Positions 10,611-52,181 of a stretch of DNA of 64,000 bases are shown here, piece after piece (the stretch's first letter is position 1; every line of letters begins with the position of its first letter). A program made the translations under genes and the position numbers. Under the pieces are notes generated by a model that searched no databases, was not told the DNA's origin, and was given only the letters and a program-made list of their open reading frames with translations. Source of the DNA: Opitutales bacterium (lineage in GTDB: Bacteria > Verrucomicrobiota > Verrucomicrobiia > Opitutales > UBA2987); the NCBI GenBank assembly GCA_965226885.1, contig CBDDEL010000013.1:498710-562709 (forward strand), read 5' to 3'.

Positions 10611-13600
10611 ATGATAGGCAGAGTAATGGCATTCTTGTGGGCAGGGCTGTTTGTTTTGAACATCCCACTTTGTTTTGCGCAGGAGGAAACCACGTCACGG
10701 CAAGAGCCGGGCAAAATCAGTGAAAACGGAATTGACCAAAACATTCGTAGCCGGACGGGCGCGCAGCAGTTGATTTTGACCAACGCTTCAAGAAAGACTG
10801 TCACCGTTGCCATTGCCGAGGACATTATCCCATTTCAGTTCGTAGATGAAGATGGAGTTGCGCGGGGCTCACTGGTCGAATTCTGGAGACTTTGGTCGGC
10901 CGTCACGGGGATTGAAGTTGTATTCAAAAGCTCTACCTGGAATGGCTCCATCCAGATGGTAAAAAACGGTGAGGCCGACTATCATGGCGGCCTGTTTTAC
11001 AGTGAAGCCCGAGACCAATTCCTAGACTATACCGAACCGATCTTTACCGGGGATAATCACTTCTTTTTCCATCGAAGCATCTTTGGCCTGCAAAAGGTCG
11101 AAGACCTTGCCGGCTTCCAAATCGGTATATTGACGGGAGATTTCGCGGTCAATTATGTGCGAGAACGTCAGCCCGGAGCGCCCGTTATCGAGTACGACAA
11201 TTTTGAGGGCATGATGAACGCCGCCCGCAGCGGAGAAGTGCGAATACTTGTTGGCGACACCCTCCCAATCGTCTTTCAATTAGCCCAAAACGGCTTATCT
11301 TTCAATTAGCCCAAAACGGCTTATTGAAAGACTTTCGTTATCACCCAGAAAGTCCGATATTTGCTCGTGCCTTCCATACCGCATCAGCCGAGGGTAGGGG
11401 TGATATGGTGGAAATATTCAACCAGGGGATTGCGCTCATCCCGACCGCCCAGCGCGCCGCCATCACCGGGCGCTGGGCGGAGCCAACAATGGACAAGGAG
11501 GACGCCCTGGTGATCGCAGCGGCACTGGATTCTCCGCCGCTTACGATGCTCAATGCGCAAGGTGATCCGGCGGGTCTGTTGATCGATTTTTGGAACTTGT
11601 GGTCGGAGAAGACAGGACGGCCAGTGGAGTTCAAATTTGCGATTTGGAATGTGGCGTTGGGGTATATGCAGGATGGAAACGCACAGATTCATTGCGGACT
11701 GGCTTTATCTGAAGAGCGTGATGTATTTATTGATTACTCCCAACCGTTTTATGGGCTCGAATACCGCTTATTCTATCCATCCGACCTTGGCCCGGTGGGC
11801 GATTTGAGCGAACTCAACGGTTTCAAAGTAGGCGCCTTTAAGGGCACCACGCAGGAGGCATATCTTCGGGAAAATTTGCCAGGGGTGGAAACGGTTGTGT
11901 TTCTCGACGGTTTGGAGATGATTAACGCAACGATTGCCGGAGAAATCAGGGCCTTTCTGGAAGCCGCTCCCGTCACGGAGGCGTTTCTGAGCCGTCGCGG
12001 TTTGTCCGGCAGCATCACAGCCGATAGTCGCGTTCTCTATAGTGAGGATATGTTTGCCGCAGTTGTCGAGGGTGACAGCGAAATGCTCAAGTTGGTGGAC
12101 GAGGGCCTCAGCGCAATCAGCATAGATGAGCTACGAGAAATCGAGCAGCGCTGGATCGCCGATCCCCAAAACCGCTATTTCGAAAGAACCGAGGGAATGG
12201 TGAGACTTACAGGTGAAGAGCGCCAATGGCTGGAAAATCATAACATCCTTCTGGGGGGCGCCGATCCGGAATTTCCTCCCTATGATTTTTTCGATGCGGA
12301 GGGCACTCATGCGGGTATTTCCTCGGATTACGTAAGGTTGATGGAGGAGCGTCTAGGTGTTGATTTTCAAGTAGTTCTCGACCTGGCGTGGACGGACATA
12401 CTGGATCGGGTAAAAGAAAAGACGCTCGATGTCGTTTACTGCATTGCGGAAACGCCGAAGCGAAAAGAATACCTCAATTTTAGCAAACCTTACGCTAATT
12501 TTCCAATTGTTATAATTACCCGGGCTGATGAAAAATTCATCAGCGGCCTGGACGATCTGGCGGATTTGAGAGTGATGGTGGTTTCTGGTTACTCAACACA
12601 AGAATCGATCGAAGGAGATTTTCCCGATTTAGACTTGCTGACCGCAGCCACCCCGGAAAAAGCGCTGCGAGCGGTATCGACAGGGGCGGCCGATGCTTTC
12701 GTGGCGTCGCTGGGGGTGGCCAGCTACCTCATCCAGAAGGAAGGCCTGACCAACTTGAAAGTGGCCGCGCCCACCCCTTACACGGTGGAGCTTTCCTTTG
12801 CCGTGCGCAAAGACTGGCCAGAGCTGGTCTCAATTCTGGACAAGGGGCTAGCCTCGATCTCGAAAGAGCAGCGCGATGAAATCTACCGCAATTGGATCAG
12901 CGTGCGCTTCGACACGAAAACGGATATTGGCGAGCTGTGGCGGGTGGGCCTTCAAGTTGGGGGTGTGGCTGCCATAATTTTGGCCATCGCCCTGGTCTGG
13001 ACCTTACAAATGCGGCGCAAGGAAAGAGCTATCAGGGAATCGGAAGAAGCCCTCAAAACGGTCTTCAATTCGGTTTATGACGCCGTCTTTATCCACTCCG
13101 TGGACGGGCGCGTTATCGACGTAAACGACAAGATGCTGGAAATTTTTCAGGTAAGCCGCGAAGAGGCGGCCCAATACGGCACTTTCCTTCATTACTCTGC
13201 TCAGGAAAACTCTTCCGAAATCCTGGAATCCCTCTTGCCCGAAGTCATGGAGGGCAAAGTTCATCGCCTGGAGTGGAAAGCGCGGCGGCCCAAGGACGGC
13301 CATGTTTTCGAGGCCGAAATCGTGCTCCGAAAAATAGAATATAAGGACGAGCCAGCCATCCTCGCATGCGTCCGCGACATTACTGAATTCAAACAAGCCG
13401 AGGCAGAACTGAAAAAGGCAAAGCAGCGGGCCGAGGCGGCCAATCAGGCCAAAAGTCTCTTTCTGGCCAATATGAGCCATGAAATTCGCACACCCATGAA
13501 CGCCATCCTCGGATTCAGCGGGCTCTTACAAAGAGACATCAAAGACTCCAAACAGAAGCGCTTTCTGGAATCGATCGCCTCCAGTGGCCGTACGCTTCTA

Positions 13601-14950
13601 AGCCTTATCAACGATTTGCTTGACCTTTCCAAGATTGAAGCGGGCAAACTCATTCTCGAACCCGAACCGGTCAGGATATCTGCTCTCTTTCTGGACATTG
13701 GCCACGTATTCGAGATTAAAACGCAGGAAAAAGGTCTGGATTTGCGTGTGGAGATAGACCCCAGCCTGCCGGAGTCTATCCTATTGGACGAAGTTCGCAT
13801 GCGCCAGGTGCTATTCAATCTCGTGGGAAACGCCGTCAAATTTACGCCCAAAGGCTACATCAATTTATCGGCTAAGCGTTTAGAATCACAGGACGATGGA
13901 GAAAACTTTGACCTCCTTTTCTCGATTGAAGACTCCGGCGTGGGAATTCCCAAAGAAGATCAAAAACGTATTTTCGAAGCATTCGAGCAGCAAAGCGGTC
14001 AACGCACCCGCCAGTTCGAGGGTTCCGGGCTTGGGCTCGCCATCACCAGACGCCTCGTTGAGATGATGGGAGGTGAAATCACTGTTGAAAGTGAGTCCGG
14101 CAAGGGCAGCAGGTTTACCGTGAGGCTAAAACAAATTGAACCCGCTGCCGTAGTTGAGGCCCATGCTGAGCGACTGTCGCAATCGGATTACATCGTGCGT
14201 TTCGAGCCCTCGAAGGTTCTTATAGTTGAAGATAACGTCATGAATCGCTCCTTGATTTATGAATATTTGAACGATTCCGGTCTTGAAGTAATTGAAGCTG
14301 AAAACGGCGCAGTGGCCCTAGAAATGACTCGGGCTCATCGGCCCAACCTTATTCTGCTCGACCTTAATATGCCCATAATGGACGGTCGCGAGGCAGCCGC
14401 ACAGATTCGCGAAGACCCCGATATCGCGGACATCCCGATCGTTGTTCTGACCGCCTCCTCGCAAGCTGGAGAAGAAAATTTAATGACGCAATTGGACCTC
14501 CAAGGCTTCCTGTTGAAACCAATAGCCAAGGATCACCTCATCGAACATTTGCGGCAGTTTCTCCCCCATCACATCAGCAAAATAAAGTCCGTCGAGACGG
14601 AGGGGAGCGGCCATACTCCAATCTTGGAGACGGTTGACGAAGAGGTTCCAACAATGTCCGCATCGGAGCGGTCACGCCTTCCGAAGTTATTGGGTATATT
14701 GGAGGATGATCTTATGTCGGAGTTCGAGCGGGCGAGCAAACGCTCTCGGCTGGGGCCGATTAAGGAAATCTCGCAAAAGATTGATCGGTTGGCGCAAGAA
14801 TTCAAGGTAACTGAATTCACAAATTATGCCGCCAAACTCAACCTCGCGGTGGAAAGCTTCGACGTCGATCAGATGAGTCAAGCCCTCTCCGAATTCCCTC
14901 GAATGGTGGAGTATTTACGTGCATCTATTGAGGACTTGACTCAAAGTTAG
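10611..14950 (+). pseudogene. Hybrid sensor histidine kinase (three periplasmic family-3 SBP domains, TM, PAS, HisKA, HATPase, REC), frameshifted by a 26-bp tandem duplication
   Basis: ORFs 10611-11309 and 11324-14950 join into one 1437-aa frame when one copy of 11272-11297 is removed; FLANMSHEIRTPMN, NLVGNAVKFT, DSGVGI, GSGLGL, LLDLNMPIMDG motifs. Confidence 0.88.
11272..11323. repeat. Exact 26-bp tandem duplication
   Basis: tctttcaattagcccaaaacggctta x2. Confidence 0.97.
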
Positions 14951-14963
14951 CCTGTTAGCCTCT

Positions 14964-16099
14964 TATACCAAATCTCATTAGGTATGATAATAAGTTATTT
15001 GGCAGAAGCGTTTGCTTGAATGTGCTGCCAGCCTCCGCCAACTAAAGAGAGGACTTTTTCAGTGTCCTCCCACCAGTCTTTGAGATGGGTTGCGACGACT
15101 TCTTCGAGTCGCTCAATGCTCGGCCACAGTTTGTTGGCCGTTTGATCCTGTATCATATCCCAAAGTCTTTCAATCGGGTTGAGTTCAGGACTATACGGCG
15201 GCAGATTCACGATATGTATGCCCGGGGGGACGTTGGGGTGCTCCGAGTCGTGCGGATGGAAGCCTGCCCCGTCCCATACAACCACATGTTCCTCCTCAGG
15301 ATATTGCTTTTTGATCTGTTGGAGGAAAGCCTCCGTCCACTGTAGATTCGTGCTAGGGGTTTGGATGCATACCATCTCGCCGTTGACCACGTCGAGGGCT
15401 CCGTAACAGTAGCTCCACTGGTATCTTGTCTGATATTTTTTGTGCGGCCGAAGCCCTCTTTGCGTCCAGCACCGGCGGTACACCGGAAGCAAATCAAAAC
15501 GGCTTTCATCGGCAAACCACACCCGAACCCGATTGCCTCGGGTGAGGGAAAGCTCCTGGAGGATCTTAAAAAAGTCTCGCTTGAACGCTTCCGCTTTTGC
15601 CGAGTCCCGTTTCTCATGCACGGGGCGAGGGACTCGAAGCACCCCGGCGCATTTTTTTAGCCATCGCCACACCGTCTTGTAGGCGAAGGAGCGCCCGAAA
15701 TGTCGCTCCAGCTCTTGCCCCGCCTGAACGGCTGTGTTCCAGCGCGCGACCTTCAAACCATTGAGCAAGAAGGCCTCCACCTCTTTGTCGCAACGGCTTT
15801 TGATCCCGCCTTTGTAGGCGCGTGTAAGCACCGCCCCGAGCCCTGCAGCACGATATTTGTCAAACCAACGCTGGATCGTCGCTTTGCCTCGGCCCACGAT
15901 GGCTCCAATTTCATCAATGCTGTGGTGCGGCTGGAAGCCCATTTTTAATGCCACCAAACGCTCTTTACGCCAGCCGACAGCCTCTTTGTTGAGCAATTTC
16001 TTGATACGTTCACGGTCTTCATCGGTTCCCATATATCTTCTCATTCCGCCTTTATAGCTGTTTTTTAATCTTTATCAATCCTTTTGCGATTTGGTATTA
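14964..16099 (-). mobile_element. IS630-family element
   Basis: IR core ataccaaatc (14965) / gatttggtat (16097), TA-rich ends, single transposase ORF. Exact ends +/-2 bp. Confidence 0.8.
14995..16044 (-). CDS. IS630-family transposase
   Basis: N-terminal HTH, WFADESRF, VWDGAGFH, LPPYSPELNPIERLW motifs. Confidence 0.92.
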   Translation of the reverse strand: MRRYMGTDEDRERIKKLLNKEAVGWRKERLVALKMGFQPHHSIDEIGAIVGRGKATIQRWFDKYRAAGLGAVLTRAYKGGIKSRCDKEVEAFLLNGLKVARWNTAVQAGQELERHFGRSFAYKTVWRWLKKCAGVLRVPRPVHEKRDSAKAEAFKRDFFKILQELSLTRGNRVRVWFADESRFDLLPVYRRCWTQRGLRPHKKYQTRYQWSYCYGALDVVNGEMVCIQTPSTNLQWTEAFLQQIKKQYPEEEHVVVWDGAGFHPHDSEHPNVPPGIHIVNLPPYSPELNPIERLWDMIQDQTANKLWPSIERLEEVVATHLKDWWEDTEKVLSLVGGGWQHIQANASAK

Positions 16100-16108
16100 G
16101 AGGGTGTC

Positions 16109-17413
16109 TTACAAGTTCCACCCTAGAAAGATTTGATAATCGAGTATCTTCTCCGTCCCCGTATTAACGCCGTCGTAATCGACGAATCCCATTTTGAGTT
16201 TGAAGTAGTAGCGGGAACCGAGATTCCTGGTATAAATGATATCAAGCTCCTTGCTTTTATCGACCGGGTTCGAGGAGTGTAGATCGGTGTGGAGGTAGAG
16301 AATATATAGATTATTGCTATTCCAGGCGTAATTGGATTCGACATAGAACGACTGGCTGCCTCCAAAAAAACCGGCGTCCGTTTCGACCATCGGCTCTTCG
16401 ATAATCAAACTGGGTTGGAAGGGACTGTGGATGTCGTTGTCTGCGCCGCCGCCGGTGACAATGAAAAACCCTGGTTCGATACGAAAGTCCCCTTTCTGGA
16501 AATTTACGCCGCCCTGAAGCGCATCGGAGCGCAGATCGAATCCTGTAAAATCATCATACCTATCCAATCCGCGCTGTCGGATGTATTTGATTTTTATATC
16601 CGTCTTGAATGTGTCGGAATCAATAACAGTACCCATGATATTAAGGCCGAAGGTATTATACAGATCGTCTCCGTAGAAATCGTATAAAGTCAATTCCGCT
16701 CGCTCGATTCCCGTATAAGTCACTTCGAAAAACGGCATTCCGTTGGTGGAATAAGGAACACCCTCCACCTTTTCCACCGGATTGAATCCATTGGCGGAAG
16801 GTCCGTTGGTTAAATCGTCCCTCGATGTCCAACTGCTGAATTTGTCGATAAACCCCAAATCGGCGCTGAAGTTCTGGTTGTTTTCTACATGCAAGAGGAC
16901 CGCTTCATAAGACTGGTCTTTTTGGCGAATGTTGTAAGTGCCCGCAAAAACAGTGTGCAAGGCCTGTCTGCCCACTTTAAGGTAAGAGTTCTTCCATCCC
17001 AAGTCGTCCAAGGTGAGGCGGATATAGGCTTTATTCAATATAGAGAAATCCGAATTTGATAAAACATAAGCGGGATCCAAGTTGCCGAAAGCCAGTCTGT
17101 CGCCGGTACTAAGTAATTTCCAGCTATACATGTACTCGCCGCCAACGGAAATGCCCTTGTAGGCGGGACTTTGGTAATTCAGGGAAATGGCGATTGTGCC
17201 GGAATGCAACTCGGTGTCACCTGCGCCGTGATTTTCAAACTTGCGGCCCATGAGGAGGGTTTGCACCCGGCCCGAGAGGTCTCCATAACCCTCCGTTTTA
17301 AGGGTCTTGAAAAGGGGTAAATTGCCTTCCCCTGCAAGTCTGGCAGGGGGCATCAGTAAGAATGCGAAGGCAACCAGGAACAATGGAAAAGCAATAACCG
17401 AAGTGTATTTCAT
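16109..17413 (-). CDS. Outer-membrane beta-barrel, OprD-family-like porin (currently in-frame with the upstream gene)
   Basis: Own signal peptide MKYTSVIAFPLFLVAFAFLLMPPARLA; LKVGRQ motif, amphipathic strands, C-terminal YQIFLGWNL. Family assignment is by recognition only. Confidence 0.7.
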   Translation of the reverse strand: MKYTSVIAFPLFLVAFAFLLMPPARLAGEGNLPLFKTLKTEGYGDLSGRVQTLLMGRKFENHGAGDTELHSGTIAISLNYQSPAYKGISVGGEYMYSWKLLSTGDRLAFGNLDPAYVLSNSDFSILNKAYIRLTLDDLGWKNSYLKVGRQALHTVFAGTYNIRQKDQSYEAVLLHVENNQNFSADLGFIDKFSSWTSRDDLTNGPSANGFNPVEKVEGVPYSTNGMPFFEVTYTGIERAELTLYDFYGDDLYNTFGLNIMGTVIDSDTFKTDIKIKYIRQRGLDRYDDFTGFDLRSDALQGGVNFQKGDFRIEPGFFIVTGGGADNDIHSPFQPSLIIEEPMVETDAGFFGGSQSFYVESNYAWNSNNLYILYLHTDLHSSNPVDKSKELDIIYTRNLGSRYYFKLKMGFVDYDGVNTGTEKILDYQIFLGWNL

Positions 17414-17438
17414 AAATGAAGAAGTATTGATTCGATCT

Positions 17439-18811
17439 TCAGGCATCGAATTGGCATCGAATTGCCAAGTTGGCGCGAATTCGTTATCATAAGTGATCTC
17501 GGAATAATAGACCCCTGAAATGAGCATGTCTTCGCGTTTGAGGAGGCCTTTGTTGCGACCGGCCGTCAAAGGGTGTTTGAGACCGCGCGGACGCACGAAA
17601 TAGGTGAGTTTTCCCTTGTTGCCGCCGGTATGGGGCAAGAGGCGGCAAAAATGAATGGTGGGGGCAGATTCCACCTTTATCGGCAGCCCCTCTTTGATAC
17701 TGTCGAAAACTACTGCTGAATTCGTTACCCGGTAGTTGTCGTCCGGATCGATATCCATAATATCCAGCGGTATGCGAACATCTGTCAGGTGATTATAAGG
17801 CGATTTTTCCTGGTCCGTGGTGCAGACGCGCACAATTCCATCGGGAAAGCAGAAGGTGGTGCGGGGGCAGATGCTCTTGACGGAATCCGAATAGACCGGT
17901 TCCGGGTCTGCGCCAAATAGATCGTTTGTTCTGAACCATACATTGCCCAGATAATTCCTTTGCGTGATGCGGGCCGAAACCAACCAACCGTTTTTATATG
18001 GGAGGATGGCGCCCTCGAAAATACCCATTCCATTGGGGCCATCCAGAATGGGGCCCGTCTCGACCCATTCATAGCGTTTTATAGTATCGTTCCAGCGGTA
18101 AAGAATGGCCGTGCAGGCCGACTTCAAAGTATGCAGTCCGCCACCCCAATGAAGAAGGAATGCCCACTCCGTGCAATCCCCGTTGTAGGGCACGGGGACA
18201 ACATAGCTTTGGTTCATTTGCACGAATTCCTCATGACGGCAAACCGCCGGGCCTTCTTCGTAGCCCTTCTGCCGCAAGGGGGCCACCGGACTGATGATTT
18301 CTATGTCGTCTTCCGTTTCGTTCAATTTGAATTGCACCCAGTAATCCCGGTAACTTTCCGGCGGCAGCACTTCTTCGGTTTCGTGTAAAAGGTAATCCCT
18401 TTGCCGGTCCAGAACGCGTGGGTTGGCGCGCCAGGAAGCGGCAAAATACCCTCCGTGGGCAGCCCGTTTGCCATTAATAACGGCCCCTTGGGGGACACCG
18501 AAAACAACCGAATGATTGCACAGTTTTACATAATGGCTGCCGTCGCCCAGCGGATCCCAATCCTGATCCGATTTGTCTAGACAGCCCTCCGACAATACGG
18601 GCCCGTCGGGAGTATCCTTGCGCACCTGGTAAACGACGCTGCGGTTATCGTCGCTCCCGCGAAAAGTGCGGGTTTCGTAAATGACAAACCACCGGTTTTG
18701 GCTCATCTGGAGGGTGTTATGCTGAGCAGGGACATGGTCGTCCGCTTTGGTTTCGCCCTCCAGGCGGCATTGGTCTATGTAATAACCTTTCGATTCAATT
18801 TTTTCGATCAT
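17439..18811 (-). CDS. Uncharacterised protein X1 (paralog of 40344-41669); natural stop bypassed by an 11-bp duplication
   Basis: Starts MIEKIESKG just after the SBP stop; colinear similarity with 40344-41669; removing one ggcatcgaatt copy gives ...TWQFDA-TGA. Confidence 0.85.
17442..17463. repeat. Exact 11-bp tandem duplication
   Basis: ggcatcgaatt x2. Confidence 0.95.
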
Positions 18812-18821
18812 AATGATTTTT

Positions 18822-20828
18822 TTATTTTTCTTTGATAAAAATTTGCCATAGGTGGAGCGATCCGCCCCAACCGTGATAATCGTTGTCGTAAACGATGTCG
18901 TAGGGAACATTTCCCAAACGTTTGCTGGCCGCCCAGGCCCGGTATTGGGAACCGATGCCAATGGCCGGAATATTATCGGTATGGAGGTCCCGAAACCTCT
19001 CCATGTTGGTTTTTATTTTTTCACTGTCGATTGTGGCCAGAGTGGCCAGAACGCCTTTCATCAGCTGGGTCGCTTCCTTCAACCAATCGGGACCTTCCCT
19101 CCAGGCGTGCCGGTGCCAAAAAGGATTTTGGGGGCTGGTGATGGACCAGTAATTGGGCCGCTGGGGAGGATCGGAAGGGGCGCTGACAGATTTCATGGTA
19201 ACATCAAATTTCCCATTCAAGCCGCGGTCGTAAATTATTTCCTTCTTTCCTCCATTGAGATGGATTTTAATTCCAATATTTTCCCAGTAACCTTTAGCGA
19301 ACTCGCAAACGTCAGCCTCAATCAGTTTATCCGTAGAAAAATCGATCGTTATCTCAAAACGGGAGCCGTCATTGAATTCACGAAACCCATCGCCATCGTT
19401 ATCGGAATATCCTGCTTCTTCCAGGAGAGCCATGGCGAGTTGGGGATCGTAATCGGTGTATTTTCGATAGGTTTCTTCGGTGAAATACGGGCTGCCCCTG
19501 TTAAGGGAATATCCGCAAGGTTCCAGAAGAATGCCGTGGTAGAGAATTTGCTTAATCTCCTCTCGATTCAATGCATGCGAGAGTGCTTTTCGAACCCGAA
19601 TGTCCCGAAACGCCTCCCTCTGATTGAGCCCGGGCGCATCCCAATTCAGGTATAAGCAGGGGATGTCAGCTGGTCCCATCAGGCCAAGTTCTATTTTGCC
19701 GGCTGTTTCCGCTCCCTTGAGTGTTAAATAATGTTGGGGTTCACTATAGCGTCCGAAAAAATCGATTTCCCCATTAATAAACTTCAGGAGCATAATATTG
19801 CGGTTTTCATAGACCGTAAATTCCATTCTGTCCGCATAAGGCAATTGGTTGCCTACGGTATCTATTTTCCAGTAATACGGGTTTCGTTCATAGACGATTT
19901 TTTGGCCACGAACCCATTGAACGGGAATCCAGGCGGAAAGCCTAGGAATTCCTGGTTGTAGAACCAGATTCGCCTGCGAGGTGATCTCCTTGAAACGTTG
20001 GTAAGTGGCCTCCTTGCTGTAACGAGGATGGTGCCGACTTAAAACGTGTTTGGGATAAGCGAATTGGTTATGACAAAAGGAATTCAATACACGGGCCAAA
20101 GGTTTTTCGGCGGACACTTTAAAAGTCGTATCATCGATTTTATCAATCTTCATCGGTTTGCCGTCCACCAGCCATGTGCTCGGGAAAAGCGGCATTGTCC
20201 GCGCCTCTTCATCGAAGACCATGTCGTAGTACCAGAAAATAATGTCATCGACGGTAAATGGAATCCCGTCCGACCATTTAACCCCCCGGCGTATTCTAAC
20301 GATTAATTCCCGCCCATCAGGGGAAAACTGATAACTTTCCGCGAGGTTGAGTTGGAATTTGCCGGGCAGATGGTTTTCGAAACGGAAAAGCCCGTCATTG
20401 AGCGATTTGTTTACCCCTTGTTCCTCGATTATCTCAGTGGCAATCAACCTTCGCAGGGCACCGCCATAGACGCCGGTCTCATTTGCAGGAACAACGACCA
20501 GAGGATTCTCCGGCAGCCTGTCCGAAACGGGCGGCAATTTCCCATTTTCCACCAGATCCGTTAGCATGGGAGCTTCCTGAAACGAACGGTTGGCCAAAAT
20601 TGTCGGATCGATTTTTTCAAGGCGCAATATCCTTTGCATCTGTTCAGATGGGGCGGAGACATTCCCGTCTTGAGAAGCCGATTCCTTTCCTTTACCCCCT
20701 TTCATGCAGCCGGTCTGGATAAAGCACGGAATTAAGAAAGTCAGGAGGACGGCACAGAATTTGAAAAAAGCATGGCCATTTTTAGGATTAAAGAATCCTC
20801 TTTGGCCCCAATCAGTTTTTACAACCAT
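18822..20828 (-). CDS. ABC transporter family-5 solute-binding lipoprotein
   Basis: Lipobox-like IQTGC, EAPML...GKLPPVSDRLPENP, IRRGVKWSDGIPFTVDD, RNPYYWKIDTVGNQLPYAD. Start placed at ATG 20828; the ORF extends to 20981. Confidence 0.9.
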   Translation of the reverse strand: MVVKTDWGQRGFFNPKNGHAFFKFCAVLLTFLIPCFIQTGCMKGGKGKESASQDGNVSAPSEQMQRILRLEKIDPTILANRSFQEAPMLTDLVENGKLPPVSDRLPENPLVVVPANETGVYGGALRRLIATEIIEEQGVNKSLNDGLFRFENHLPGKFQLNLAESYQFSPDGRELIVRIRRGVKWSDGIPFTVDDIIFWYYDMVFDEEARTMPLFPSTWLVDGKPMKIDKIDDTTFKVSAEKPLARVLNSFCHNQFAYPKHVLSRHHPRYSKEATYQRFKEITSQANLVLQPGIPRLSAWIPVQWVRGQKIVYERNPYYWKIDTVGNQLPYADRMEFTVYENRNIMLLKFINGEIDFFGRYSEPQHYLTLKGAETAGKIELGLMGPADIPCLYLNWDAPGLNQREAFRDIRVRKALSHALNREEIKQILYHGILLEPCGYSLNRGSPYFTEETYRKYTDYDPQLAMALLEEAGYSDNDGDGFREFNDGSRFEITIDFSTDKLIEADVCEFAKGYWENIGIKIHLNGGKKEIIYDRGLNGKFDVTMKSVSAPSDPPQRPNYWSITSPQNPFWHRHAWREGPDWLKEATQLMKGVLATLATIDSEKIKTNMERFRDLHTDNIPAIGIGSQYRAWAASKRLGNVPYDIVYDNDYHGWGGSLHLWQIFIKEK

Positions 20829-20931
20829 GCGGCAGGTTTGGTGAGAAATATATTTCCCGCCAAATACCCCGAAATCTCTATCAAATATTGATATTTTCAT
20901 TCCCATTCCAATTGAACTTGCCCTAACACAA

Positions 20932-20972
20932 TTGGGGCAGCATATCATAGTTTGGGGCAGCATATCATTAGT
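20932..20972. repeat. Near-exact ~20-bp tandem repeat in a divergent intergenic region
   Basis: ttggggcagcatatcatagt followed by ttggggcagcatatcattagt (one-base indel). Confidence 0.85.
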
Positions 20973-23055
20973 CAAGTTCAAAAGTAATTATAATCCCATT
21001 ATAAGCACACTGTAAGGGTTTACCCTTCAACCATGAACTACCTTTCCATGAATTTATTTACTAACGCGAAGGATGACAATGAGATTTATTAGTTTCACTC
21101 TCTGCCAACAACTTAGCCTGGCGGCATGGCTGGGCTCTTGTCTAATCGGTTTTGCTGATTCGCCAATAGACCAAACCAATTCCGTTGGCATGAAAATGAT
21201 TCGGCTGGAAGGGGGATCTTATCAGATGGGCTCAAAAATATCGGGTAAAAGCGACCGGTTTTCATTTCCATTTGTCAAGGCCGATAATCTCTCAAAGATG
21301 CCGCCTGACTGGGACGAATTTCCCCGCCACAAAGTGACTATCAGTAAACCATTTTACATCTCAGAGACCGAAGTCACAACAGAACAATACTGGAAATTCA
21401 AGCCTCATTACAAAGGCTCGAAAAATTATCAACCTTACGTTACCGGAGTGAGTTGGCATGAGGCCATGGCTTATTGCCGGTGGTTGAGTGAAAAAGAGGG
21501 AAAGCCCTACCGCCTGCCGACCGAGGCGGAATGGGAGTATGCCTGCCGGGCGGGAACCGGTACACCTTTTTCTTCGGGCGATGAGCTGCCGGAACCGGAT
21601 TCGCCCAACTCATGGGGGCTGCTCAACATGCACTCAGGCGTGGTCGAGTGGTGCCTGGACTGGCACGGCGTTTATCCGCACGACGACCGGGTCGATCCGG
21701 CAGGTCCTGCTCACGGGTTTGTCCGCGTTGTTCGTGGCGGCCCTCTTGATCGGGAAGAAAGGATGCTGTTCCGGTTAAGCTCATTTTACAGACGTTCCGC
21801 CAATCGCGCCGGAATGGCCCCTGGATTCCGGCAGATTCCCTCACAGGATGGAGAGGATGCGACGCCGAAAGATTTTTCCCAACCTGAAAATGGTGCTTTT
21901 TTTCCGGGCTTAGTGGGGAATTTTTACAATAGCTCTTATTTAACCCGCCCGTCGAGTATTTGGCCAGTAGAGGTTATTAACTCCGATCAAATGGATTGGG
22001 AGTCGAGCAATGATTGGTCGGCTGTATGGAGAGGATTTTTGGAAGCCCCCATGACGGGTTCGATTGAATTTTTTGCCGAGGTGAACAATGGCCTGCGGGT
22101 GGAAATCGACGGCCGAGTTGTTATCGATGGTTGGGAGTCAGGTTCGGAACTTAAAGGCGTTTTTACCATGGAAAAAGGCAGGAAATATCCATTTAAACTT
22201 TCCCTTTTCACGGATGGCGGAGGCTCCTTTCTGCGTTTGTATTGGACCCATTCGGGGCAGAAGAAAACGATCGTTCCGGCAAAGGCATTCTGGCATTCCG
22301 ATGCGGACAAGCATTTTGTCGGCGATGAAGTTATGAAAAGCAAAAAACCACGGGAAAATCCAATTGGTTTTCGCGTCGTGCAGGCGCCCATGCCGACCAC
22401 TCAACCGCATCCCTTCGAAGTGCCTTTTGCCATGCAGGGCGTTCGTCAAAATGTTGCCCATGTAAAGAAAGGACCCTCGCCGGAAAAACCGTATTTCCGC
22501 AAACGGGTCATGCTCCCGATTCCACTGGAAAACAGTTCCCGTGAAGCCATCGACGCCGCCGGGTTTCATCCTTCTTTTCGAGGTCACAATCATAGTCCGG
22601 CTCTGGAAGTTTGTTCCAATGGAGACCTTTTATTGGTCATTTACACTTCCTACAATGAGTATGAACCAGGGGTTTCCTTGATGGCTGCCAGGCTAAGGTT
22701 CGGGGCGGATCAATGGGACATGCCTACGCCATTTATGGATTTTCCCGATGCCAACGACCACGCCCCTCTTCTTTGGAATGATAACGGCAAACTACACTTT
22801 TTTTGGGGCAATCCTCAACTTGACGGCGGTTATCCCTTCCAATGGACGGTTTCGACTAATAACGGCGCTTCGTTTGAAGAGATAAAATTTCCGGTTTTTG
22901 ACGGCCCGGTATTATCGCATTTTCGCCAGCCCATTAATTCGGCCTTTCGGGGATTGGATAGTACCCTCTATGTAGCCAGCGATGGAGTAGGCGGCACCTC
23001 CGTCCTCTGGGCGAGTAAGGATGACGGAGCCACCTGGTTCGATACGGGCGGTCGC

Positions 23056-23099
23056 AGCGGCGGTCGCCACACCACCTAGCGGCGGTCGCCACACCACCT
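23056..23099. repeat. Exact 22-bp tandem duplication
   Basis: agcggcggtcgccacaccacct x2. Confidence 0.97.
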
Positions 23100-23755
23100 A
23101 TGTGCAATTGAAAAATGGCGATATCCTGGGCATGGGAGGCAAAAACACCAATATTGACGGATTCATGCCGAAATCGGTTTCCAACGATGGCGGCAAAACC
23201 TGGAAAGTCAGCAAAACTCCGTTTCCCGCTTTAGCCTCCAACCAGAGGCCCACCATCATACGGCTGCAAAGTGGACGGCTTTTCTTTGCTGCGGATTTTC
23301 AAAAAAGGGGAGGGGGGCAACCCTTGGGAATTACTCAGAAAGGCGCTTTTGCGGCGCTTTCCGAGGACGAAGGGAAGACTTGGAAGATTAAAAAAATACC
23401 TGGCACATTGCTCCATGAAACCGATCAGCCGTGGGGCGAAACTCTCGGTTATTCCGTGGTCCGCCAGGCCCCTAACGGCATCATTCATTTGATCACGACG
23501 ATGAACCATCCCAGCCTGCATTTTGCCCTCAATGAAGCCTGGATTTTGTCGGAAAAAGGAAAATACTCAGAACAAAAAATGACGAACCCCGATTCGGGAG
23601 AACTTTCAAAAGTGAAACATTTTGTGGAAGTGCATTCCAATGGAGAATCCAGGATTGAAGGCAGTGGCGGTATCGCCGAAGACGGTCGTTACTTATTGGA
23701 GGGACCCCAGGTTTGGAAATATGCCAACGGTAATAAAAAGTTGGAAACCGCCTTC

Positions 23756-23809
23756 GAGAGAGGACGCAAGGCAGGCAAGGAAGAGAGAGGACGCAAGGCA
23801 GGCAAGGAA
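23756..23809. repeat. Exact 27-bp in-frame tandem duplication (ERGRKAGKE x2)
   Basis: gagagaggacgcaaggcaggcaaggaa x2. Confidence 0.97.
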
Positions 23810-24084
23810 ACCTATTGGAATATCGATGGAAAGAAAATCTGGCAGTGGGAGCATGATTCCAAGGGGATTTCCCGATGGATCCAATGGTGGCCTAACGGAC
23901 AATTAAAAGCGCAATCGAGCTGGCAAAATGGGAGATGCGAAGGCATGGCCAGAACCTGGGATTATCACGGGAACCTCATAAGCAAGGTCGAATTTTCCGA
24001 CGGCAAACCTGTCGGTTGATGGAAAGAGGTGTCAGGTTTCAGGAAAAAATGTCGAGTCCAGACACCTGAACACTACATTCCCCA

Positions 24085-25839
24085 TCAGGGAGAATATTCG
24101 TCAGCCCCGATATCGACTCCGCCATTTAAAGGGCGATCCTCCAAATCCATGTCATTTTTCGCCCCAAAGTCGTTATGACCTGCATCGATACAGGGAGAGC
24201 CGGCTTTCAGGTGATAGGTCGGCATTATTTCAAAATCGGATATGTCTGAATAACCCGATCTAGAAAAATCTCCCCAGACATTGATTTTTCCAGCATCATT
24301 CGAGGCCACTACTCCCCATTTTTCACCAACCTTGATAACGCGCCCGGAGAGATCTTCATTCTCAGAATCGGCGTATTTCAGGCTGGTCATAAAATGCCTG
24401 TGGTCGAACGCACTGACCACGGCGCTGCCCTTTTTCCCGTTATCCACAAATTGCGGATCCCCGATGAAATTGCCTTCCCCTTCGTAACCTCTGGTCAAAT
24501 TGTTGTAGGTCAGTTCGACGGCCGTTTCTATTTCAATCAAGCCGTGAATGATGTTGTTCCGATAGGCTCCGGGAATCAGGCCTTCCTTTGTTTCGGTGTG
24601 GTAGAGACCGTCCGTGATGGTGTTGTTTACGAGCAGGATGTCGGAGCGCTGAAAGTAAACATGGCCCACGTTTTCGGCCATGATATTGTTTTTCAATTCC
24701 ACCCGGCTTTCCATGGTTATGCGCATGGAACCGGAATTGTGGGACGAATTATCGTTGCCCATGATTACATTGTTGAGGATGCGCACCAAAAAGTCCTCCT
24801 TCGGCGGCGGCGTATCCAGGGGTGTGCCATAGTGGTGTTTTTGTCCCCCGACAAAGATGGCACCGGCATCATCGCCGCCTATATTTCCGACCAAGATATT
24901 GCCCGCGATGAGCGGAGACGACCACAGCGCTACAAAGATTCCGCCGACATCATTTCCATTTAACGACTCGTTGTTGCTGATGACGTTTCCGACAATTTTT
25001 GGGTGCGACCAATCGTAAACGGATATGGCGCCGCCATCAGCGCTGCGGGCAATGTCGATCAGGCCCGTAACGTTATTGGAAAATACATTGTGGGCGATGG
25101 TGGGGGAGGAATAATTGTCGCAGGTAACTCCGGCCCCGCGGCCGATCTCCGTGCGGTTTCCCGCAAAAATATTGTTAGAGATATTGGGCGAGGCCATATT
25201 ATTGCACATGATGGCTCCGCCGTCGTTGGCTACCTCGTGCCATTTAGGCGGATCCCAATCGGTGGGAGCGTAAGTCATGTTGTCGATAAAAACATTATTG
25301 GTAATGTCAGGAGACGAATTTTCGCACAAAATTCCCGCTCCTTTTCCTCGAACCCTGCCCCGTTTGACGATAAAGCCGTCTAGTTTTGCATGATCCGCGC
25401 CCACAACTACACGACGCATCAGGCCACCATCGAGAATGGTTGGATTTTCAAAAATGTCCCTGCTCCAATCGGAAGCATTGTGACCGCCGTACAAATCCAC
25501 GTAAGGCTGAAGGGCGAGTGTCCTACCAGAGTATTTACCCTCGGCGACTAAAACCGCATACCGCTTTTCGGGGCCGGCATCCGTTATAGTTGAAAGGGCG
25601 TGGGAAATGGTTGCCGATGGTCTGGCGGAACTCCCATCGCAATCGGTGTCCGACCCGGTTTTGGCGGAAACATGGCTGACTCCCCGATATTCGCTCAAAT
25701 CGACGGCCAGGGTTTTTGGGCCGATATTATTGGGATCGAATTTGTAGGATTCTTCCCCTCCTTGTGTAGCAACTTGAATTGTTAAGAACAGACAGAAGGC
25801 TGCACAGGACCGTTTAATCATAATTGCGACTTTATTCAT
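24085..25839 (-). CDS. Secreted right-handed parallel beta-helix (pectin-lyase-fold) protein
   Basis: Signal peptide; TISHAL...VAEGKY; repeated GGAI...SSPxIxNN units; YHLKAGSPCIDAG...DIGADEY C-terminus. Confidence 0.8.
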   Translation of the reverse strand: MNKVAIMIKRSCAAFCLFLTIQVATQGGEESYKFDPNNIGPKTLAVDLSEYRGVSHVSAKTGSDTDCDGSSARPSATISHALSTITDAGPEKRYAVLVAEGKYSGRTLALQPYVDLYGGHNASDWSRDIFENPTILDGGLMRRVVVGADHAKLDGFIVKRGRVRGKGAGILCENSSPDITNNVFIDNMTYAPTDWDPPKWHEVANDGGAIMCNNMASPNISNNIFAGNRTEIGRGAGVTCDNYSSPTIAHNVFSNNVTGLIDIARSADGGAISVYDWSHPKIVGNVISNNESLNGNDVGGIFVALWSSPLIAGNILVGNIGGDDAGAIFVGGQKHHYGTPLDTPPPKEDFLVRILNNVIMGNDNSSHNSGSMRITMESRVELKNNIMAENVGHVYFQRSDILLVNNTITDGLYHTETKEGLIPGAYRNNIIHGLIEIETAVELTYNNLTRGYEGEGNFIGDPQFVDNGKKGSAVVSAFDHRHFMTSLKYADSENEDLSGRVIKVGEKWGVVASNDAGKINVWGDFSRSGYSDISDFEIMPTYHLKAGSPCIDAGHNDFGAKNDMDLEDRPLNGGVDIGADEYSP

Positions 25840-35820: not shown

Positions 35821-35844
35821 TATTCACCAGGCTATTCACCAGGC
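35821..35844. repeat. Exact 12-bp in-frame tandem duplication (IHQA x2)
   Basis: tattcaccaggc x2. Confidence 0.93.
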
Positions 35845-36011
35845 TTATATGGCCGATGGTTTAATCCGGCGCGGGAATGAAATATGGCAATATTATTACG
35901 GTGAGGAAATCTATCATTCAAGTTATCAAAAAGGCCCCAAAAGAAGCGCCGGTTACAGGTTAGTGCAGCGTTTGGACGGATTTGTTTCGGCAGACTCACC
36001 CTACGAAAAAG

Positions 36012-40303: not shown

Positions 40304-40345
40304 ACCTGATATTAAGTGTTAAATACCTGATATTAAGTGTTAAAT
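40304..40345. repeat. Exact 21-bp tandem duplication overlapping the X2 start codon
   Basis: acctgatattaagtgttaaat x2. Confidence 0.96.
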
Positions 40346-41669: not shown

Positions 41670-41682
41670 AGGTATTTTTGCC

Positions 41683-45562: not shown

Positions 45563-45587
45563 GATCGTTTTTCCGACACCTTCTTCT

Positions 45588-46637: not shown

Positions 46638-46703
46638 GGTTCCATTTTCGATGCATAATTAATAGAAGCTTGAATCGTAAAATCAACAACATCAGATTGC
46701 ACT

Positions 46704-48203: not shown

Positions 48204-48253
48204 TGATTGGCGGTCAGGTCGTTGCTTTCAGATGTTACGGTTACGGCGTTTTT

Positions 48254-49300
48254 CTAAGCCGTAAAATCTCGGCCCAAGCCGATTTTAATCATCCACCTGC
48301 GCATAGCTACCGATGACTTGTCTGCACGAACGTGGACTTCTTCCGAAAGATCGAGAGGTATCTCTTCGGGTTTTTGCGATTCGATGAAATTTCTATCTTC
48401 GAGCAGGATTTTCTTTTCCCAGGTGAGGAGTTCTTCCACCGGCACATGGTGATCGAAATTTCTCGAAAAGAGGAAGAGGAACTGCGATTTGCGCGCAGAA
48501 ACCGGGGTAATGATAATATGGATAATATGCTCCCGGCCTTCCGGATACTGAATGCGCGATCTGGTGAAGAATGGGTAATTCAAAGTGCGGGTCATGTGCC
48601 GCTGGATTTGATCGGTGCCTTGAATAGGCGAATCATGGGGGTTTCCGGCCAGATAATCGAAGTCCATGACAAGGCCGTGCTCGAATGACGTCAGTTCATA
48701 CTCGGAGCCCATTTCAGCGCTCGATGCCTGCCCGAAAGTGCTGCGGTGAATGAATGAAAAATGGGCGTTATCGATGAAATTCTCAATGGCCCGGCCGGCC
48801 GAGCATTCCCAAATGATAGGGCCCCAGGAAAACCAGCGGAAATCCTTGTCATTCCATTCCATATCCCAGTCGGGAATGACATTGGCTGGCTGGCCGGATA
48901 AACAAGCCCAGATAACGCCGTATCTCTCCTCGTGCAGGTAGATTTTAAGGCAAAGTTTGCTCGGCGGCTTCCAGTCGGGATGGGACGGCACAAGGGTGCA
49001 TCTGCCTTCAGGATTATAGCGATAACCATGATAACCGCAGACAATCTCGTCACCCTCGATCCATCTATAAGAAAGAGGGGAGCCTCGGTGGACACATAGA
49101 TCCTTGGCCACCACAAACCCTGTGCTTGTGCGGTAAACCACCAAATCTTCATCCAGCAACCTCACCTTAAACGGTTTGTCCTCAATATCCTTGGCCAAAG
49201 CAATCGGGTACCAAAAGTTGGAAAGAATCTTCCAGTCCGAAGGCGAAAAAGTACACTGCCGCGGAACGTAATCCGCATCTTCATAGGTTTTAGCAATCAT
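48254..49300 (-). CDS. Rieske non-heme iron oxygenase alpha subunit (VanA/demethylase-like)
   Basis: CVHRG...CGYHG Rieske motif; ENFIDNAHFSFIH; ED...ESQ. Confidence 0.88.
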   Translation of the reverse strand: MIAKTYEDADYVPRQCTFSPSDWKILSNFWYPIALAKDIEDKPFKVRLLDEDLVVYRTSTGFVVAKDLCVHRGSPLSYRWIEGDEIVCGYHGYRYNPEGRCTLVPSHPDWKPPSKLCLKIYLHEERYGVIWACLSGQPANVIPDWDMEWNDKDFRWFSWGPIIWECSAGRAIENFIDNAHFSFIHRSTFGQASSAEMGSEYELTSFEHGLVMDFDYLAGNPHDSPIQGTDQIQRHMTRTLNYPFFTRSRIQYPEGREHIIHIIITPVSARKSQFLFLFSRNFDHHVPVEELLTWEKKILLEDRNFIESQKPEEIPLDLSEEVHVRADKSSVAMRRWMIKIGLGRDFTA

Positions 49301-49340
49301 ATGGATTTCATATATTCTTTATCTTAAAATTATTCGGGTT

Positions 49341-50596: not shown

Positions 50597-50598
50597 AA

Positions 50599-52181
50599 CC
50601 CGGATATTTCGTAAAAAAAGTATCGTTGATATGCTTAACTGCTGATATACAGCAGGATAGATCAATAATTAAAGCAATATCAGCGATGACAAAAGGTAAA
50701 CAATTAAAGCTACAGTTGACAAGGGTAAAAGGCCGCCGTGTGCGGGTTGATTTCAAGGGCGGAGAGGTTACTTCGGATGCCGGACTGCTTTTGATCCGGG
50801 AAGTGGATCGGCAGTTGGGCTTGACCGAACGAGCGGCCCGACAGTTAGTGGACAAACGGCAGAAGGGCAAAGTACGCCATGAGGTCTTGGGGATGCTGCG
50901 GCAGCGCGTTTACGGGCTGGTGGCGGGCTATGAGGATTTGAACGACTTTGATACCCTGCGCCACGATCCATTGTTGCAAACGGTAACGGGGCGCATTGAA
51001 ACGTTGGCCAGCGCGCCGACTTTGTGTCGTTTTGAAAACGGGCAGGATCGGCGGGCGGCCTTTGCGGTAAACGAGCTGTTGGTCGAACAGTTCATGGGCT
51101 CCTTTGCCGAGGAACCCGAAGAGATCATCCTGGACTTTGACGCCACCGACAAGCCGGTGCACGGGCTCCAGGAGGGACGTTTTTTCCACGGTTATTATGA
51201 TCATTACTGTTTTCTGCCGCTATATGTTTTTTGCGGTGATCAGCTGCTGGTGGCCTACCTGCGGCCGAGCAAGATCGATGCCAGCAAGCATGCCGGGGCC
51301 ATCCTCAAATTGCTGGTTAAACGGATTCGCCAAAGCTGGCCCCGTACGCGGATTATTTGGCGCGCCGACAGTGGATTTTGTCGAGACCGGATACTCTCTT
51401 GGTGCGACCGCAACGAAGTTAGTTACATCGTGGGGATGGCTCGCAATGCACGCTTGCAGCAAGACGCCCAGCAGTTGCAAAAGCAGGCCAAAGAATGGTT
51501 CGAACAAAGAATGGTTCGAACTAAGGGGTAAAAAACAACGGTTATTCCAGGACTTCGTCTATGCTGCCGATTCGTGGCGATGGCTGCGGTTGGTCATCCA
51601 TAAAGCCGAACACACCGCACAGGGGTCCAACCCGCGCTTCGTGGTGACGAACCTGCCGGGCGATCCCCAGGAGCTTTACGACAAGGTATACTGTGGCCGC
51701 GGTGAAATGGAGAACCGAATCAAGGAACAGATGCAATTGTTCAGCGAGCGCACCAGCGCCCATCAATGGTGGGCCAATCAGTGGCGATTGCTCTTGTCGG
51801 CGCTGGCCTACACCTTGATGGAAGCCATGCGCCGGTTAGCCTTAAAAGGGACGAAGTGGGCGCGGGCCCAATGCCACACCCTGCGGCTCAAATTAATCAA
51901 GATCGGAGCGGTCATCGTGCGCAACACCCGAACGATTCACTTTCACCTAAGTGAGAGTTATCCTTGGGCCAGTCTTTTCAACCATGCGGCCCGCCGATTG
52001 GTGCCAACCTAAAGGGTGCATTGGTGCTGCCCCCGGCACTACCGAACCAATGGGGGAAAGGGGGCAGTGTCTCTACACCCTGAAAAACACCTAAAAATCA
52101 AGACGATCTGCTCAAAATACAAAGAAATCCATCTCCAATAGCAATAACGAGCCAAACTTTACCCTTCATGAAATATCCGGG
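50599..52181 (+). mobile_element. IS1380 copy 3, full length, flanked by CTAA; transposase frameshifted
   Basis: IRs cccggatatttc...gaaatatccggg; ctaa on both sides; 16-bp duplication at 51489-51520. Confidence 0.94.
51489..51520. repeat. Exact 16-bp tandem duplication, absent from the other two IS1380 copies
   Basis: caaagaatggttcgaa x2; single copy at 3362-3377. Confidence 0.97.

Follow-up and report, generated by a model that had tools for sequence, protein, structure and literature searches.

How tandem repeats originate from non-repetitive DNA has been described, at least in one report, as an open question (PMC6954433), and it is raised again by the stretch of DNA analyzed here. This window of 64,000 nucleotides belongs to the genome of an uncultured marine bacterium (5.48-Mb, 96.3% complete; hereafter G000), and a sequence-only reading of it had proposed a candidate 'tandem-duplicator' process. 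Exact head-to-tail tandem duplications (TDs) were examined in the window, where they were also run through Tandem Repeats Finder, as well as across the whole genome and in strains and relatives. The TDs are genuine mutations of one lineage that arose recently and continue to arise, and they stem from a repeat-independent process. The proposed tandem-duplicator process was thus borne out by the excess of TDs, their homology-free junctions and their polymorphism among strains.

Exact tandem duplications in the window and the genome

All eight exact duplications listed earlier for the window are present. Frameshifts are caused by a 26-bp TD (11272..11324) in a hybrid sensor kinase gene (10611-14950), which is split into ORFs of 232 aa and 1208 aa, by a 22-bp TD (23056..23100) in an FGE-sulfatase/PA14 gene (21073-24019), and by a 16-bp TD (51489..51521) in an IS1380 transposase gene, whose unit is found as a TD twice in G000. 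In-frame TDs include a 27-bp one (23756..23809) in the same FGE-sulfatase/PA14 gene, a 9-bp one (19033..19050, + strand) near the 3' end of an SBP_bac_5 gene, and a 12-bp one (35821..35845, + strand) in the gene of a Laminin_G_3 protein. An 11-bp TD (17442..17464) is intergenic and lies 2-9 bp off a lineage-specific rearrangement junction, and a 21-bp TD (40304..40345, - strand) occupies the divergent intergenic region between a uxaE-like gene and an ORF starting at 40344. The near-exact duplication reported at 20932 was also found, with a 21-bp unit whose copy at 20948 is missing in sequencing run X4; together with a 6-bp TD at 20898, it forms a hot spot (20898..20973) in a divergent promoter region.

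Besides this 6-bp TD, the first list could be extended by an exact 118-bp x2 TD (5153..5388) between the ends of an IS3 copy and an IS1380 copy, an exact 36-bp x2.1 TD (53234..53308) in non-coding DNA, an exact 10-bp TD (55009..55028, + strand) in the divergent intergenic region of pspA and pspF, and an exact 9-bp repeat (48512..48529) that is in-frame in a Rieske/VanA-like gene. It is uncertain whether the 118-bp TD, which lacks the outer mark described below, is part of the same process as the others. The repeat at 48512, which carries no marks, may be a chance product, because chance accounts for approximately 33 of the 122 TDs of period 9 in a third-order Markov simulation. As had been claimed, no TD is located inside the ORFs of glpK, cysC/D/N, pspA/F or the DEAD-box helicase. 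The 10-bp TD at 55009 is situated between the genes pspA and pspF.

A genome-wide scan for exact TDs showed that the signature extends across the whole 5.48-Mb genome. Far more than chance could supply was found, as the earlier reading had estimated for the window: 617 exact TDs with a period of at least 10 were detected, compared with approximately 7-20 expected, and lowering the period to at least 8 gave 893. The Markov simulation predicted approximately 14 TDs at period 10 and zero at periods 11-14. The most populated periods were approximately 7-14 bp. At periods of 15-60, exact TDs and those with one mismatch stood at 310:26. Hot spots were also evident, with 31 pairs of neighbours less than 100 bp apart (6 expected), 17 of which had overlapping spans.

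Short TDs are also known from slipped-strand mispairing and from rad27/FEN1-type duplications, which need flanking direct repeats. Here, in contrast, homology at the junctions does not exceed the chance level. Among the 588 two-copy TDs, 0, 1, 2, 3 and 4 extra matched bases were found at the junctions of 329, 142, 68, 22 and 6, respectively, whereas our own arithmetic for two flanks, (k+1)(3/4)^2(1/4)^k x 588, gives 331, 165, 62, 21 and 6.5. No excess of microhomology or direct repeats was detected at these junctions, in agreement with the near-absence of junction homology first noticed in the window.

Polymorphism among strains and distribution over genes

Exact, homology-free duplications could also arise from the end-to-end joining of overlapping contig ends, which makes an assembly, polishing or contig-join artefact conceivable. 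Logan contigs (runs X1, X3, X4 and X5) representing three metagenome samples (S1-S3) from three studies were used for strain comparison. In independent contigs of the three samples, some TDs were present and others absent on otherwise identical DNA, and their sharing at the six loci compared followed a nested pattern. The 26-bp TD at 11272 was found in a 462-nt contig of X1 with 0 differences, whereas X3, X4 and X5 lacked the 26 bases and were identical in the remaining DNA; three congeners (G002, G003 and G004) also have a single copy at this position. The 22-bp TD at 23056 was seen in X1 as well as in an X3 contig of 4967 nt, and the 22 bases were missing in X4 (depth 8/8). The other TDs seen in these contigs were the 11-bp one at 17442 (X1 and X5), the 9-bp one at 19033 (X1, X3 and X5) and the 27-bp one at 23756 (X1 and X3). 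Three exact TDs (14, 22 and 7 bp) are private to run X4, the 22-bp one being located at 20907, in place of the arrangement seen in the hot spot at 20898..20973. An artefact is refuted for the six compared loci by the presence of TDs with 0 differences in contigs from raw runs. It is further contradicted by the nested presence and absence of TDs in the samples of two other studies, by the sequence motif at TD ends and by the depletion of TDs in ORFs, and as a general explanation it has practically no probability left. The TDs are therefore real mutations that are polymorphic among strains.

These polymorphic alleles inactivate accessory genes, as the sequence-only reading had suggested: the hybrid sensor kinase gene is split by its 26-bp TD in sample S1 only, and the FGE-sulfatase/PA14 gene is split by its 22-bp TD in S1 and S2 but not in S3. 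On the other hand, the accompanying claim that selection filters the mutations is not supported as the main explanation. TDs are depleted in ORFs of G000, yet the ratio of 3n to non-3n TDs inside ORFs is 79:159, which equals the neutral 1:2. Moreover, intergenic density decreases from divergent (0.476 TDs per kb) to tandem (0.383) and convergent regions (0.246; p 4e-4), compared with 0.055 TDs per kb in coding DNA. Since this density tracks the number of promoters, it points to a mutational bias as being at least partly responsible. Promoter-rich intergenic regions are expected to contain DNA that is unwound and negatively supercoiled.

It could also be supposed that the duplication rate is ordinary for the order and that more TDs are simply retained under relaxed selection, in a lineage that passed through a bottleneck and carries an inflated number of IS elements. 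The genome size of G000 (5.5 Mb, compared with 3.4-4.3 Mb in congeners), its hundreds of IS copies, the 79 TDs that break ORFs and the lack of 3n enrichment within ORFs would be in line with such relaxation. However, intergenic TDs should then be near-neutral everywhere, yet G005 and G019 have 1 and 5 TDs per 400 kb, respectively, whereas approximately 45 would be expected at the G000 rate. Strains that are identical over kilobases still differ by TDs, and the 310:26 ratio of exact to one-mismatch TDs also argues against this explanation, which is considered improbable.

A one-strand mark at the duplication ends

The TDs carry a two-site mark at position -5 on one strand, consisting of 5'-TTNCAATN↓ (the arrow indicating the joint) ahead of the unit and a second C at -5 within the 3' end of the unit. 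Among the 329 unambiguous TDs, the left flank has C at -5 in 47% and the right flank has G at +5 in 49% (background, 26%), and A/T occupies the three bases in between. One or the other outer mark is present in 80% of the unambiguous TDs, compared with 45% of random sites, and this proportion is steady over periods 10-30; neither is present in the other 20%. The two outer marks are mutually exclusive (OR 0.28, p 5e-8), an effect specific to offset 5, and each outer mark is associated with an inner mark on its own strand (pooled OR 2.2, p 1e-6) rather than on the opposite one (OR 0.66). The 5' site has the full context T-8 T-7 C-5 A-4 A-3 T-2, whereas the unit-end site is essentially limited to C-5 (53%) and A-3. 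This asymmetry is consistent with one site being cut in duplex DNA and the other serving to capture a nascent end. The marked strand showed no bias with respect to GC skew (p 0.27) or the coding strand (44/86).

Several TDs in the window illustrate the mark. Those at 19033 and 35821 have C at -5 in the left flank on the + strand, accompanied by C at -5 of the unit end in the former and by CA at -5/-4 of the unit end in the latter, and both marks of the TD at 40304 are on the - strand. The left flanks of the TDs at 17442 and 55009 also have C at -5.

The mark bears on two origins suggested earlier, namely NHEJ-like repair of staggered breaks and scars left by the insertion and excision of IS elements of the IS1634/IS1549 type. 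Exact duplications that vary in length and lack homology would be produced both by fill-in with end joining and by IS elements whose target duplications are long and variable, and the window is rich in IS elements. However, Ku (PF02735) and ATP-dependent ligase (PF01068) had 0 matches in the 96.3%-complete G000, whereas both were matched in the B. subtilis control, and the marks lie on one strand, those of opposite strands being anti-correlated as described above. A related route, in which nicks on opposite strands are followed by end joining, likewise yields small homology-free TDs starting from nicks; it needs both opposite-strand nicks and end joining, in contrast to the one-strand marks and the lack of matches to Ku and ATP-dependent ligase in G000. 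With regard to IS elements, the families present are IS1380, IS3 and IS630. The flanks of 219, 122 and 45 copies, respectively, compared from approximate element ends, revealed no flanking direct repeats of 8-36 bp; common words were at most 12 bases long, except for IS-end sequence of adjacent copies. Abundant IS elements are thus present without long target duplications, none of the copies examined has target duplications matching the TD lengths, and the motif at TD ends is unrelated to IS ends. Taken together, the fill-in and IS-footprint readings are largely refuted and retain only a very small probability.

A candidate topoisomerase III and its relation to known systems

Only one gene of G000 matches PF01131, and its product is the only type IA topoisomerase. 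Based on profile and PDB comparison, this gene (G000:C16:753075-755564) is assigned to the topoisomerase III family: the score with the topoisomerase III model NF006032 (NCBIfam) is 1072.3 bits (cut-off 1058), that with topA_bact is 237 (cut-off 456), and among solved structures its closest relative is E. coli topoisomerase III (E 5e-86, compared with 4e-35 for Topo I). Homologues of the enzyme carry Verrucomicrobiota and Opitutales names, in keeping with an Opitutales origin of G000. It has been reported that human topoisomerase III prefers CANNN↓, E. coli topoisomerase III CTT↓, and the bacterial Topo I of E. coli and M. tuberculosis CXXX↓ (PMC2702276). The mark in G000 matches the human preference in its C and its A, located five and four bases, respectively, 5' of the joint, and it shares with these type IA preferences a restriction to the 5' side of the cut; the human enzyme is, however, eukaryotic whereas that of G000 is bacterial, and CANNN↓ is quoted second-hand in PMC2702276.

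These observations make topoisomerase III the most likely candidate for the enzyme behind the TDs. Each TD would be made on one DNA strand, which would be cut immediately 3' of a readily melting 5'-TTNCAATN↓ site, most likely by the topoisomerase III-family enzyme, which would stay bound to the 5' end. A polymerase may then extend the free 3'-OH by some 7-36 nt, displacing the old strand, until a new 3' end with C five bases back could be resealed by the enzyme to the 5' end that it still holds. The looped-out extra copy would be fixed by the next replication as an exact, homology-free TD. This extend-and-reseal route lies one step of inference beyond the enzyme itself, and the account as a whole is given a slightly better than even chance of being correct. 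Counting against it are the unbiased marked strand, the 20% of unambiguous TDs that lack both outer marks, the CTT↓ preference of E. coli topoisomerase III, the lack of a motif at the hot spots of the E. coli mutator described below, and the lack of a Pol I polymerase domain match in G000, since the account requires an extending polymerase.

Comparison with relatives provides evidence in both directions. In the sister species G004, 15 TDs were counted per 400 kb; of the 10 that are unambiguous, 8 are marked. On the other hand, the same single enzyme is found in all 20 relatives searched, yet no more than 0.25-1.3 TDs per 100 kb are seen in G001, G002, G005 and G019, which implies that something else must differ. 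Across 20 genomes of the order, A14T, beside the catalytic AEKPS motif, is the only change at a conserved column that is confined to G000. It is rare rather than unique (A in 112 and T in 1 of 115 other homologues at position 14), and G004 makes marked TDs without it.

The shared enzyme of the TD-poor relatives would also be consistent with another single-strand process in which the topoisomerase has no part, such as faults in lagging-strand priming or Okazaki-fragment maturation without Pol I, or a nickase with a CAAT-type preference. No PF00476 Pol I polymerase domain was found in G000 or in the four other genomes of the genus, the sole 5'-3' exonuclease domain is in a lone 317-aa ORF, and the fullest TD periods, approximately 7-14 bp, are near the length of bacterial primers. 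However, the Pol I domain is missing from 13 of 21 genomes in the order, including G001, G002 and G019, which have only approximately 1 TD per 100 kb. Furthermore, the marked strand is unbiased with respect to GC skew, although this skew is weak, and the position of C, five bases 5' of both joints, agrees with what a type IA enzyme binding the 3' side of its cut would leave. Such a process is considered unlikely, while still deserving more weight than the other alternatives discussed above.

The topoisomerase III account has its closest precedent in a laboratory mutator of E. coli, topA R168C (Bachar et al., Nucleic Acids Res 2020, PMC6954433), for which repeat-independent TDs of 2-19 bp with hot spots and an unaffected point-mutation rate were reported; no motif was found at the hot spots, and the mechanism was left open. 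Both systems share short head-to-tail TDs independent of repeats, hot spots and the implication of a type IA topoisomerase. In contrast to that laboratory Topo I mutant with its 2-19 bp TDs, G000 represents a natural lineage whose sole type IA enzyme belongs to the topoisomerase III family, with approximately 600 events of 7-36 bp and more and a clear one-strand CAATN↓ mark; the causal change is R168C in E. coli topA, whereas none was identified in G000. Among the matches listed when a literature collection was searched for at least two of the themes de novo tandem duplications, topoisomerase and bacteria, only the E. coli study dealt with the first theme, and a search joining tandem duplications, type IA topoisomerase and cleavage returned nothing.

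The natural population offers hundreds of dated, polarised TD events with a sequence signature. This signature makes it possible to test predictions on a single enzyme, on where it cleaves and on the order in which cutting, extension and resealing take place. A TD mutator can persist in the wild, producing polymorphic gene-inactivating alleles and reshaping promoter regions. It is a tentative possibility, less probable than the mechanism itself, that this is a wild lineage with a heritable, topoisomerase III-driven 'tandem duplicator', whose approximately 600 in-vivo cut-and-reseal footprints would reveal a CAATN↓ site preference, the birth of repeats by extension and resealing on one strand, and a source of on/off variation. 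If true, the polymorphic and potentially reversible frameshifts in sensor, sulfatase-type and transposase genes would amount to on/off variation at the population level.

Tandem duplications in the window and across the genome

The sequence-only reading had listed exact head-to-tail tandem duplications (TDs) at window positions 11272 (26 bp), 17442 (11 bp), 19033 (9 bp), 23056 (22 bp), 23756 (27 bp), 35821 (12 bp), 40304 (21 bp), and 51489 (16 bp). All of them were present as described and were independently reported by Tandem Repeats Finder, along with further exact TDs at 5153 (118 bp, two copies), 53234 (36 bp, 2.1 copies), 55009 (10 bp), and 48512 (9 bp). Its general idea of a "tandem-duplicator" process was right, and the signal is stronger than it had stated. 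By scanning the whole assembly (5.48 Mb in 17 contigs, 96.3% complete), 893 exact TDs with a period of at least 8 and 617 with a period of at least 10 (11.3 per 100 kb) were detected, compared with approximately 14 at period 10 and 0 at periods 11-14 expected from third-order Markov simulation. TDs with periods below 7 were inseparable from background, and the excess at period 6 probably reflects codon repeats. The densest hot spot seen contained four separate TDs (19, 14, 23, and 21 bp) within approximately 200 bp on contig C15 (394536-394740).

Two-copy TDs accounted for 588 of the 617, with 547 distinct units. Extra matched bases at the joint numbered 0, 1, 2, 3, or 4 in 329, 142, 68, 22, and 6 of these TDs, respectively, versus 331, 165, 62, 21, and 6.5 expected, by our own arithmetic, if two flanks match randomly. 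The earlier impression of almost no junction homology was thus borne out: the observed distribution is that of chance, and junction homology thus plays no part in the duplications, which excludes slippage. At periods 15-60, exact TDs outnumbered those with one mismatch by 310 to 26, a comparison limited to these two classes because chance and windowing inflate the counts with 2 and 3 mismatches (78 and 155); the duplications are therefore either of very recent origin or short-lived.

Strain polymorphism and gene context

The window TDs are real, nested, and polymorphic mutations. Six public runs from three studies cover the stretch, and four of them were compared over window positions 10500-24900: X1 (sample S1, probably the source of the assembly), X3 and X5 (both from S2), and X4 (from S3). 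The TD at 11272 was present in a 462-nt X1 contig with 0 differences, and its 26 bases were absent from X3, X5, and X4, in which the DNA was otherwise identical; since three congeneric species have a single copy here, the duplicated state is derived. The TD at 23056 was present in X1 and in a 4967-nt X3 contig and absent from X4 (depth 8/8), and that at 23756 was present in X1 and X3. The TDs at 17442 (where X4 depth was too low) and 19033 were found in X1 and the S2 runs, as was the near-exact 21-bp duplication at 20932, which is single-copy in X4. X4 itself carried insertions of 14, 22, and 7 bp that were exact tandem copies of adjoining window sequence, as well as a 14-bp near-tandem insertion. 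Of the nine indels recorded among the four runs, all but one, a 6-bp insertion at 24168, were tandem copies.

Two larger variants were also observed. An IS630 copy at 14953-16107, across which word depth was approximately 30 times that of the flanks, is polymorphic: in contigs from X4 and from a minor, divergent strain in X1, a single G separates 14952 from 16108. At 10670-10789, shortly downstream of the sensor kinase ORF start at 10611, X1, X3, and X4 contigs have a second allele with 34 other letters in place of 118 bases.

Three of the window TDs each split a gene: that of 26 bp a hybrid sensor kinase gene, that of 22 bp an FGE-sulfatase/PA14 gene, and that of 16 bp an IS1380 transposase gene; the TDs of 9, 27, and 12 bp are in frame, and those at 20898-20973, 40304, 53234, and 55009 lie between divergent ORFs. 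Selection had previously been suggested to filter the mutations; as the main filter, it was not supported. By a strict test, 349 of the 588 TDs lay outside ORFs, whereas random and motif-matched sites fell within ORFs in 69% and 64-71% of cases by the same test. On the other hand, the ratio of 3n to non-3n TDs inside ORFs was neutral (79:159), and TD density per kb fell from 0.476 in divergent intergenic regions to 0.383 in tandem and 0.246 in convergent ones (p 4e-4), with 0.055 elsewhere. Because this order tracks promoter number and not expected tolerance, the intergenic excess is read as at least partly mutational.

The class of ORFs made by a duplication (16 cases) was unreliable, and the TD at 17442 was rejected as ORF-creating, since a stop-free frame merely runs through this intergenic duplication. 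In the same region (17433-17464), a lineage-specific rearrangement junction is located 2-9 bp from the 11-bp TD; its two sides are on different contigs in the congeneric genomes G002 and G003, and a remnant of a sulfatase gene start (ATGCCTGAAG, - strand) is kept in the window. An Rfam search of the window gave no match, and GlpK reached no more than 68% identity to named relatives.

An end mark and the mechanisms it bears on

Among the 329 TDs with unambiguous ends, C was found at -5 of the left flank in 47% and G at +5 of the right flank (the same mark on the other strand) in 49%, against a background of 26%, and three bases between either mark and the joint were A/T-rich. The two outer marks were mutually exclusive (OR 0.28, p 5e-8; OR 0.30 with distinct units only), an exclusion that offset controls showed to be specific to offset 5. 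Each outer mark paired instead with the same-strand mark inside the unit, at its 3' end (pooled OR 2.2, p 1e-6; opposite strand, OR 0.66). For the 214 events with exactly one outer mark, the oriented consensus directly before the unit was 5'-T(-8) T(-7) N C A(50%) A(57%) T(52%) N; the unit's own end had C at -5 in 53% and lacked the A/T-rich context even where this C was present. The mark persisted over periods 10-30, and G004, a sister species, showed it in 8 of its 10 TDs with unambiguous ends (binomial p ~0.03 versus 45%, by our own arithmetic). No bias of the marked strand was seen relative to local GC skew (Fisher p 0.27), which itself was only about +-0.03, or relative to the coding strand (44/86). 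In the single case of the six extra X4 letters at 24168, both segment ends had C at -5 on the + strand, and this difference may reflect a deletion that the same process made in the lineage of the window.

Two origins had been proposed from the sequence, staggered-break fill-in of an NHEJ-like kind and the footprint of an IS with long variable target-site duplications, and both fail. Were nicks on opposite strands filled in, the two outer marks should occur side by side, and these exclude each other; moreover, Ku and ATP-dependent ligase were not found in the 96.3% complete genome. As for an IS footprint, no long flanking repeats were found among the 219 IS1380, 122 IS3, and 45 IS630 copies examined, for which 80-nt flanks were searched for any shared word because automatic IS-end detection was imprecise. 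The IS load of the genome is very heavy (approximately 220-320 IS1380, 120-136 IS3, and 45 IS630 matches above 800 bp), with window copies at 2469-3945, 4119-5207, 14965-16097, and elsewhere. The 16-bp TD inside IS1380 occurs in two IS copies, and the broken copy has therefore been copied or moved. A loss of mutS had also been envisaged, but MutS is present, as is a RecQ-like gene.

Rates in relatives and a candidate topoisomerase

TDs with a period of at least 10 were rarer in relatives: 15 in 400 kb (3.75 per 100 kb) in G004, 3 in 225 kb (1.33) in G002, and 2 in 210 kb (0.95) in G001, all of the same genus; 1 in 400 kb (0.25) in G005 of the same family; and 5 in 400 kb (1.25) in G019 of the same order. 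The Pol I polymerase domain (PF00476), detected in 10/10 bacterial control genomes, was not found in the genome under study or four others of its genus, and in the order as a whole 13 of 21 genomes lacked it, some of them 98-100% complete; as TD-poor genomes are among the 13, Pol I loss was rejected as the cause of the raised rate. The sole 5'-3' exonuclease domain of the genome (C8:34002-34508) lies within a lone 317-aa ORF.

A topoisomerase III-type enzyme acting on one strand is, by a slight preference, our candidate behind the TDs. The genome has a single PF01131 gene (C16:753075-755564, 830 aa), whose product reaches the NCBIfam topoisomerase III model and has E. coli topoisomerase III as its closest solved structure. 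A single type IA topoisomerase was found in all 21 genomes searched (this one and 20 relatives of the order; the above locus and L091-L109); NCBIfam assigns it to topoisomerase III, and the topA_bact cut-off for bacterial topoisomerase I was reached by none of the 21 enzymes. The abstract of a review states that topoisomerase I is found in all bacteria (PMC7140829). At columns conserved in at least 15 of 16 outgroup enzymes, A14T, beside the catalytic AEKPS motif, occurs in the genome under study alone; as 112 of 115 further homologues have A and one has T at this position, the change is rare without being unique, and the TDs of G004 cannot be explained by it. A18T is common to both genomes, but A18T/S is unremarkable at this variable position (A 89, S 20, C 5, T 1 of 115).

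According to one study, bacterial topoisomerase I prefers to cut directly after CXXX, E. coli topoisomerase III after CTT, and human topoisomerase III after CANNN (PMC2702276). The TD mark, with C at -5 and A at -4, has the geometry of this last preference, which would account for its shift by one base relative to the classical C(-4).

Type IA enzymes hold the DNA strand on the 5' side of the cut and remain linked to the 5' phosphate. The candidate enzyme might cut one strand at a full-context site and hold the 5' phosphate while the 3'-OH is extended, and would then recapture a nascent end again bearing C at -5 and reseal. Such extension and resealing, which we propose more tentatively than the enzyme itself, would leave the complete cleavage context upstream of the unit but C at -5 alone at the unit end, with both marks on one strand, and would account for the lack of homology, the variable length, and the occurrence of duplications rather than deletions. 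Cross-joining of two cuts on sister strands would give the same geometry; it predicts that the two sites share one context and that deletions arise reciprocally.

With regard to the topoisomerase reading, a study of E. coli topA R168C describes repeat-independent TDs of 2-19 bp with hot spots, found no motif, and leaves the mechanism open (PMC6954433). Although that mutant affects the topoisomerase I gene and the candidate here is of the topoisomerase III type, the Opitutales bacterium is best read as a natural counterpart of the laboratory E. coli topA mutator.
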